Shown here piece by piece: positions 35,551-36,180 of a stretch of DNA of 64,000 nt. Made by a program: the position numbers and the translations under genes. Origin of the DNA: Escherichia phage UE-S1; the sequence record ON568341.1; one strand, given 5' to 3'. The stretch's first letter is position 1, and each line of letters opens with the position of its first letter. The notes under the pieces are model-generated. The model ran no database searches. It was not told where the DNA came from and saw only the letters and a program-made list of their open reading frames with translations.

Positions 35551-35952
35551 ATGAAAAAGAATGACTTGATCAAAATGCTTCAAGAAATTGACGGCAATCC
35601 AGAGATTGTTATTTGGAATGGATACGTCGATGATTATATGAACATCGAAAAAGGCTTGACTAAAATCACTCTAGTCAAAGAAACCGAACAGTTTCTTCAG
35701 AGTGCATTAGAGCACGAATGGTGTGAACGTAACAATACATTCGACATTCCAGAAGACCAACGAACCAAGATTGCAGAACGTGCTAAAGAACTGCATAAGA
35801 AACGCGAATACGATTTCCAGAACCCATATGTCACTGAAGACGAATTCAATCGCTGGTACGGTAAAAAGAAATTGACAAAGTATGTCCTTTCACCTAAACT
35901 ACGTGGTAAGACTTCACTTGGTGTATTCAACGCCGCAGACTTAAACTACTAG
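35551..35952 (+). CDS. hypothetical protein (133 aa); paralog of 35965
   Basis: N-terminus MKKNDLIKMLQEIDGNPEIVIWNGYVDDY. Confidence 0.5.
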   Translation: MKKNDLIKMLQEIDGNPEIVIWNGYVDDYMNIEKGLTKITLVKETEQFLQSALEHEWCERNNTFDIPEDQRTKIAERAKELHKKREYDFQNPYVTEDEFNRWYGKKKLTKYVLSPKLRGKTSLGVFNAADLNY

Positions 35953-35964
35953 CGGGTATTATAA

Positions 35965-36180
35965 ATGAAAGCCAAAGACCTAATTAAAATTTTACAGAAT
36001 AATCCAGAAGCAGATATTCTTATTCATGCTTCGCCTTATGATGACTATGCGATTGGTAAATGCGAAACTGCTCATTCATATCAAGCAGGAGACACAGATG
36101 TTGAAGAGTCTGGTGAAGATTTTTCAGATTCATTTGATGAAGATGGAAAACTATTAGTTCCAGTAATCATTCTCTCTTAA
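35965..36180 (+). CDS. hypothetical protein (71 aa); paralog of 35551
   Basis: N-terminus MKAKDLIKILQNNPEADILIHASPYDDY. Confidence 0.45.
   Translation: MKAKDLIKILQNNPEADILIHASPYDDYAIGKCETAHSYQAGDTDVEESGEDFSDSFDEDGKLLVPVIILS

Follow-up and report, generated by a model that had tools for sequence, protein, structure and literature searches.

Two neighbouring small genes in the tRNA region of a jumbo coliphage resemble each other in a short N-terminal module and appear to be independent cassettes

The 133-aa and 71-aa genes that lie side by side in the tRNA region of Escherichia phage UE-S1 appear, from the comparison of related genomes, to be independent cassettes, each gained and lost on its own. 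When their products are aligned, the likeness that is confirmed concerns a module of about 29 residues at the N-terminus and not the genes as a whole. Since nothing is alike past this module and the bodies that follow it differ from family to family, we consider on balance that these are two separate accessory genes with an ancient N-terminal folding module in common, and not the outcome of a local tandem duplication. Both were already annotated as hypothetical proteins in phages JP4 and 121Q; what is new here is the relationship between the genes, the size of the family to which the 133-aa protein belongs, the recurrence of the module and the precise cassette polymorphism.

The stretch of DNA analysed (64,000 nucleotides of record ON568341.1, hereafter the window) belongs to a jumbo coliphage of the Asteriusvirus (121Q/PBECO4) type, as indicated by the DNA identity of its region 34300-38800 with JP4 (93.7%) and with 121Q (91.8%). 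An earlier note, made from the letters of the window, had drawn attention to ORFs 35551 and 35965, and we found their N-termini, coordinates and lengths (133 versus 71 aa) exactly as quoted there. Its placement of the pair inside a tRNA island was also correct: the two ORFs are flanked by tRNA-Asn (35182-35256) and tRNA-Thr (36775-36849), in a run of eight tRNA genes that spans 29577-36849. Together with an 85-aa ORF they form a tight cluster on one strand (Table 1), with 8 nt between the stop codon of the 85-aa ORF and the start of the 133-aa gene, and 12 nt between the 133-aa and 71-aa genes.

Table 1. Features of the 133-aa/71-aa gene locus, in coordinates of the window.
Feature	Position	Strand	Start codon	Remarks
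Candidate sigma-70-like promoter	34879..34907	+		TTGACT-17-TATAAT, TG upstream, 11/12 matches; consensus scan only
tRNA-Ser(ACT), tRNA-Met(CAT), tRNA-Asn(GTT)	34918..35256	+		5' of the gene cluster
85-aa acidic ORF, phrog_36713	35285..35542	+		pI 4.3; first gene of the cluster
TAAATGAAA, left copy	35548..35556	+		at the start of the 133-aa gene; 9-bp microhomology bounding the 414-bp cassette
133-aa gene	35551..35952	+	ATG	AF2 model, pLDDT 82
N-terminal module, codons 1-30 of the 133-aa gene	35551..35640	+		predicted helix 3-11, NPE, strand 18-21, DDY
TAAATGAAA, right copy	35962..35970	+		at the start of the 71-aa gene; 9-bp microhomology bounding the 414-bp cassette
71-aa gene, phrog_29979	35965..36180	+	ATG	AF2 model, pLDDT 69
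N-terminal module, codons 1-29 of the 71-aa gene	35965..36051	+		predicted helix 3-12, NPE, strand 17-20, DDY
Stem-loop followed by UUUU	36194..36260	+		just 3' of the 71-aa gene; -22.1 kcal/mol, z = -2.3

The candidate promoter sits just 5' of the tRNA-Ser/Met/Asn cluster, which the three small genes follow, and judging from consensus and energy matches it would drive the cluster and, with the stem-loop, delimit one early transcription unit. The stem-loop, which was not called by the terminator scan, may mark the end of this unit, and both genes are probably co-transcribed with tRNA-Ser, tRNA-Met and tRNA-Asn. An Rfam scan of 28000-40000 returned tRNAs and no other family. Farther downstream, about 300 nt 5' of tRNA-Thr, a perfect sigma-70 consensus (TTGACA-16-TATAAT, 12/12) is found at 36452-36479 (+).

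The tRNA region has several other features. A tRNA-like gene at 32071-32145 (+; Rfam tRNA, 51.8 bits), to which ARAGORN assigns the four-base anticodon 'tcat', has the anticodon stem CTTCA/TGAAG and an 8-nt loop, CTTCATAA; it may represent an unusual tRNA, one with an expanded loop or a degenerate one. The tRNA-Ser at 34918-35009 (+) has the anticodon ACT, with A at the wobble position, and is annotated in the same way in 121Q; such an anticodon is unusual for a bacterial-type tRNA-Ser. A homing-endonuclease gene (NUMOD4 + HNH_3) is wedged among the tRNA genes at 34331-34855 (+) and is present in JP4, WPEC3, Turkey3 and ph0011; in 121Q, G17, Sharanji and others the match to the window starts only 3' of this gene, and 121Q has a different 123-aa gene there. 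The only long minus-strand ORF of the tRNA region, at 32152-33849 (-), encodes 565 aa and has a GTG start.

We followed the polymorphism of the locus by searching 50,697 phage records with the segment 35285-36180 (megablast). The three genes are contiguous in 10 records, and in 15 others (PBECO4, SP27, slurp01, A4, TH47, Turkey3 and others) the match has 482 bp instead of 896, an exact 414-bp absence which corresponds to the missing 133-aa gene, in about half of the related genomes. In the PBECO4 junction alignment ...TTTCTAGGAATTTAAATGAAA, found here 5' of the 133-aa start, joins directly to the 71-aa gene ATGAAAGCCAAAGAC..., and the breakpoint therefore lies inside the 9-bp TAAATGAAA common to both gene starts. 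The reverse situation is seen in WPEC3 and WPEC5, where the 133-aa gene is kept and an unrelated 145-aa gene occupies the slot of the 71-aa gene, with the break again at the start codon. Two unrelated genes intervene between the 133-aa and 71-aa genes in 121Q and EJP2, some 12 kb separate the two in Munch-like phages, and E9.1 has a remnant of the 133-aa gene (its last ~35 codons only). Each gene thus occurs in genomes that lack the other, which speaks against an obligate pair as well as against a conserved tandem duplicate. Even in phages that are otherwise near-identical, the slot from the 85-aa gene to tRNA-Thr is a hotspot for insertion, deletion and replacement of whole genes, with breakpoints at the start codons TAAATGAAA.

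This behaviour recalls the hyperplastic regions of T4-type phages, in which small early genes undergo PeSL-mediated modular shuffling and whole-gene cassettes are likewise inserted, deleted or replaced among close relatives, with junctions in short conserved gene-boundary sequences (PMC2839356, PMC4122927). Unlike the T4-type PeSL, the junction here is the 9-bp TAAATGAAA across the start codons, and the phage is an Asteriusvirus. No composite promoter/stem-loop (PeSL) motif was seen at the junctions, and a consensus scan of 35540-35556 and 35955-35970 found no promoter-like or terminator-like site, the nearest promoter-like site being within the 133-aa gene at 35872-35900.

How strong is the resemblance between the two proteins? 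BLASTP of the 133-aa against the 71-aa protein gave no match, because of the limits of its seeding heuristics; Smith-Waterman alignment and hhalign do detect the N-terminal match. Indeed, Smith-Waterman alignment (BLOSUM62, 11/1) gave a score of 51 over residues 1-29 only, with 14 identities and two small gaps, against a mean of 24.4 (sd 4.1) for 2000 shuffles, none or one of which reached 51. A shared N-terminus, which the earlier note had wished to see checked by alignment, thus exists beyond chance. As the pair had been picked from the whole window, we scored the 7750 pairs that can be formed from the N-terminal 32-mers of its 125 non-overlapping ORFs (mean 16.4, sd 4.0); the 133/71-aa pair ranked second (z ~8.7), and the sole pair with a higher score was one of transmembrane paralogs.

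When the families of the 133-aa (26 sequences) and 71-aa (8 sequences) proteins were compared by hhalign, 27 N-terminal columns were aligned with P = 1.1e-4 and a probability of 56%. With an HMM built from 182 members of the 133-aa family, the best of the 726 remaining six-frame ORFs of the window was the 71-aa ORF, although its score was only 9.1 bits (E = 0.05). The shared positions (L6, I7, L10, the N-P pair, the I/V alternation in the first strand and the Asp of DDY) count among the conserved ones of each family, and a distant relationship is therefore plausible. Furthermore, the AF2 models of the two proteins open with the same helix-then-strand order, and BFVD searches with the two models returned overlapping sets of small uncharacterised phage proteins, with weak matches. 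A regular expression and the HMM found no further copy of the motif in the window besides these two ORFs. The phrase 'adjacent paralog pair' can thus be kept for an N-terminal module in common and a plausible distant kinship, but not for more, as the likeness covers ~29 residues and the pairing is not conserved.

Beyond the module, the two proteins belong to different families. ORF 35551 is a full-length member of the 133-aa family, which we defined by its own alignment and the 182-sequence HMM, with a full-length match of ~120-135 aa (174 bits, E = 4.5e-53). The family comprises 36 clusters at 90% identity in a word-indexed search and, in an exhaustive profile search, 366 representatives at 50% identity with E <= 1e-3, 305 of them with E <= 1e-10; nearly all of the best 150 of these 366 matches are full-length, about 113-142 aa. 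Its consensus reads MKKNkLIklLq.IeGNPEIvLWNGfVgDyMdI...LVKe...WEfpNpfVteEe...WYG.k.KkVyvL.pKlRGKt..DR.G.I.Y, with a C-terminal Tyr in 177 of the 182 members and W22, N23, G24 and D28 near-invariant. ORF 35551 carries all the near-invariant residues (G15-N16-P17, W22-N23-G24, D28, K43, N91, Y104, R118 and the C-terminal Tyr), whereas ORF 35965 keeps only N-P and the Asp, has neither WNG, basic tail nor terminal Tyr, and scores its 9.1 bits by the N-terminus alone, so that it is not a member. The AF2 model of the 133-aa protein has helix 3-11, strands 18-21 and 31-42, helices 46-61, 68-84 and 96-103, and strand 107-116; its tail has low confidence and no assigned secondary structure. Neither the protein nor the family has a match in Pfam, PHROGs, NCBIfam or PDB, nor did any solved structure give a significant fold match.

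Conversely, ORF 35965 matches phrog_29979 from end to end (positions 1-71 of 71, E = 1.1e-51), and its Munch homologue also matches (E = 4.5e-19), whereas ORF 35551 matches it over residues 1-30 only (E = 0.097) and is not a member. The family of the 71-aa protein is narrow: outside Asteriusvirus it occurs only in the Munch group, at 45% identity. The protein is very acidic (16 D+E versus 5 K+R, pI 4.1, net charge ~-11), and its AF2 model is of low confidence, with only one of five models above 50 in pLDDT. It has no match in Pfam, NCBIfam or PDB sequences, and PHROGs gives only families of unknown function. Among deposited phage genomes, the 133-aa family occurs in Asteriusvirus, in Munch-like Salmonella and Klebsiella jumbo phages, in Pseudaeromonas phage KLEP7 (117 kb) and in Vibrio phage 1.084.O (142 kb). 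No 71-aa-like neighbour of the 133-aa family gene was found in KLEP7 or 1.084.O, the two more distant phages checked. A functional tie to the tRNAs was also considered and rejected, because no tRNA gene lies near the family members of KLEP7 and 1.084.O.

The module itself recurs far outside this pair. An N-terminus of the form MKAKDLIKILE-NP[DE]-x-[DE][IV] heads otherwise unrelated phage proteins of 46-190 aa. ORF017 of the Klebsiella phage RaK2 (phrog_18200, ~186 aa from an internal Met) begins MKAKELAELLMKNPEQEVYLEETHFDDW and gives reciprocal matches with the 71-aa family (E 0.01-0.017, position 1 to position 1); its likeness to the two window proteins ends with the N-terminal module, the other ~150 residues being related to neither. 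Weak matches confined to positions 1-20 or 1-34 come from several other small PHROGs. The profile of the 71-type N-terminus retrieved P0194-P0198, which are 47-72 aa long, begin in this way too and continue with unrelated bodies, and a scan of IMG/VR added more module proteins, of 46-65 aa, on contigs of 11-119 kb. In one of these, a 46-aa protein (MKAKDIIKLLQDNPEADLIFWDGED...), FWDG forms a bridge between the 71-type start and the IWNG motif of the 133-aa family. The contexts of module proteins are phage-like (YopX, SocA_Panacea, lysozyme, Metallophos). Gene neighbourhoods allowed no functional inference: the neighbours are unannotated small genes, with Band_7/SPFH, Pyr_excise, YopX and SocA_Panacea found occasionally and none recurring consistently.

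P0195 agrees with the 71-aa protein at 18 of the first 20 residues, although synonymous differences are present in 12 of these 20 codons and the remainder of the protein is unrelated. The N-terminal peptide is therefore held by selection at the protein level. Comparison of the 5'-end DNA across phages excluded that the common N-terminus stems from DNA exchanged recently or from a conserved RNA/DNA element. The 71-aa N-terminus is much closer to those of unrelated small proteins of other phages (P0195, L017 and others) than to that of its 133-aa neighbour, and with an HMM of the small-protein N-termini only 10 of the 182 members of the 133-aa family score above the best decoy.

We regard a common ancestry of the 133-aa and 71-aa modules as probable. 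One alternative is convergence, in which MK, an amphipathic helix, NP[DE] and a hydrophobic strand would be a favoured way for small alpha/beta proteins to start, and which seems to us possible but not likely. The module profile matches a helix-to-strand connection, ELVKILANHPEFEI, of ArgC (N-acetyl-gamma-glutamyl-phosphate reductase, E = 0.008), and it also matches a de novo designed protein, KEMLERLEKNPDKDVIVE. ArgC, a Rossmann-type dehydrogenase (PDB 8afv), and the designed protein (PDB 5j0j) are like the module in the local sequence pattern helix-(N/H)P-x-x-E-V-strand, and these connections would also be like it in local supersecondary structure. The helix-NP-strand pattern is therefore generic and alpha/beta-favourable, and could have arisen by convergence. 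The modest profile-level figures for the pair (hhalign, HMM and the 10 members above decoy) and the many PHROGs that give only weak matches anchored at the N-terminus point the same way. However, convergence does not readily account for a second rank among all N-terminus pairs of the same genome, for a match that stays in register from Met1 through DDY, nor for the bridging sequence ...NPEADLIFWDGED that joins the 71-aa and 133-aa types. Moreover, near-identical 20-mers that persist despite synonymous divergence point to descent and selection within the small-protein group.

The earlier note had seen in the pair 'another local duplication', which would make one gene an in situ copy of the other, later truncated or diverged past recognition from residue 30 on. 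The two genes are adjacent and on the same strand with a gap of 12 nt in this window, their likeness is significant and begins at Met1 in both with matching DDY offsets, and real tandem paralogs are found nearby (36865/37283). These points all agree with a duplication; nevertheless we think it quite unlikely, as the proteins are not alike past residue 30, nor are the genes alike in DNA or in shifted frames. Indeed, the protein score after residue 30 is 16 against a shuffle mean of 20.1, the best local nucleotide score between the two genes is 18 against a shuffle mean of 18.7, and a search inside the 71-aa gene for remains of the 133-aa gene, frameshifted or degraded, found none (other frames score 16-18). 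A duplication is also at odds with a 71-aa N-terminus that resembles proteins of unrelated phages more than it does the adjacent one, with an adjacency that does not hold in PBECO4-type genomes, WPEC3/5, 121Q/EJP2 and the Munch group, and with a widespread 133-aa family whose members in KLEP7 and 1.084.O lack a 71-aa-like neighbour. The marks of a tandem paralog pair, that is likeness over most of the shorter protein, a relic in the DNA or in a shifted frame, and two genes that are linked and mutually closest, are all absent, and the claim of a duplication is thus weakly supported, there being neither DNA similarity, nor a frameshift relic, nor conserved linkage. Under the reading that we prefer, two separate genes with an ancient module in common, they adjoin because the tRNA region is a hotspot that swaps small genes at start-codon microhomologies.

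Paralogs of other kinds do occur in the window. The genes at 36865-37290 and 37283-37648 (+) are real adjacent paralogs, both phrog_17453, with a Smith-Waterman score of 108. They belong to a large multigene family of 120-150 aa that is dispersed in this window, with copies at about 15550, 15998, 16410, 16816, 17190, 17630, 21106, 21645, 22477, 31071, 38368, 38777 and 53306. A tandem trio of paralogs of 112-114 aa each (Smith-Waterman 77-112) starts at 62347, 62695 and 63038 (+); the N-termini of its products are hydrophobic and probably transmembrane.

We propose the following picture of the module. It would consist of an amphipathic helix K-[DE]-L-I-x-x-L, a turn [NH]-P-[DE], a short beta-strand and an acidic-aromatic DD[YW], and appears to head a broad, undescribed assemblage of small phage proteins, from 46 to ~190 aa, whose bodies are family-specific. 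It could form the core of a mini alpha/beta domain, in which the helix packs on a small sheet that a C-terminal strand closes; the putative closing strands are KYVLSPK (133-aa protein), VPVIILS (71-aa protein) and KVIVLD (P0197/P0198). According to the model, the body of the 133-aa protein, as in the rest of its 120-135-aa family, would add an insert of helices and a basic tail with the near-invariant Tyr at its end, and that of the 71-aa protein would present an acidic loop after the module. Such variable inserts may carry the specificity, and early in infection the proteins would most likely have macromolecules of the host or the phage as binding partners. The 71-aa protein, being acidic, may be an inhibitor that mimics nucleic acid or binds a basic protein, and the conserved K-x-R-G-K...Y tail may allow the 133-aa protein to dock into a partner.

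A broader reading, in which the N-terminus MKAKDLIKIL[EQ]-x-[NH]P[DE]-x-[DE][IV] defines a large undescribed mini alpha/beta superfamily with freely exchangeable bodies (proteins of 46 aa in the minimal form, 133 and 186 aa in elaborate ones) and in which the strictly conserved unit is more than a folding nucleus and is itself functional, for example as a docking element for a single machine of host or phage, is in our opinion rather doubtful. We consider it very unlikely that the first 20-30 residues are an autonomous peptide, a docking or targeting tag for one conserved partner carried by different effectors: the 18 of 20 residues retained through 12 synonymous codon changes ahead of an unrelated remainder, and the constant position of the module at the extreme N-terminus across many protein lengths, would suit such a tag, but the AF2 models place the helix and strand in the folded core and not in a free tag, and in the smallest members (46-47 aa) the module is most of the protein.

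In conclusion, the locus provides a clean natural case of gain and loss of whole-gene cassettes at a start-codon microhomology in the tRNA region of a jumbo phage. Genomes such as PBECO4, which is devoid of the 133-aa gene, and WPEC3, which is devoid of the 71-aa gene, are natural knock-outs and indicate that both genes are dispensable and mutually independent. The 133-aa family is large, well conserved and uncurated, with its WNG motif and C-terminal Tyr, and is a reasonable target for curation and for work on structure and function. More generally, many otherwise unrelated small phage proteins start with a recurrent N-terminal module that is under selection at the protein level.
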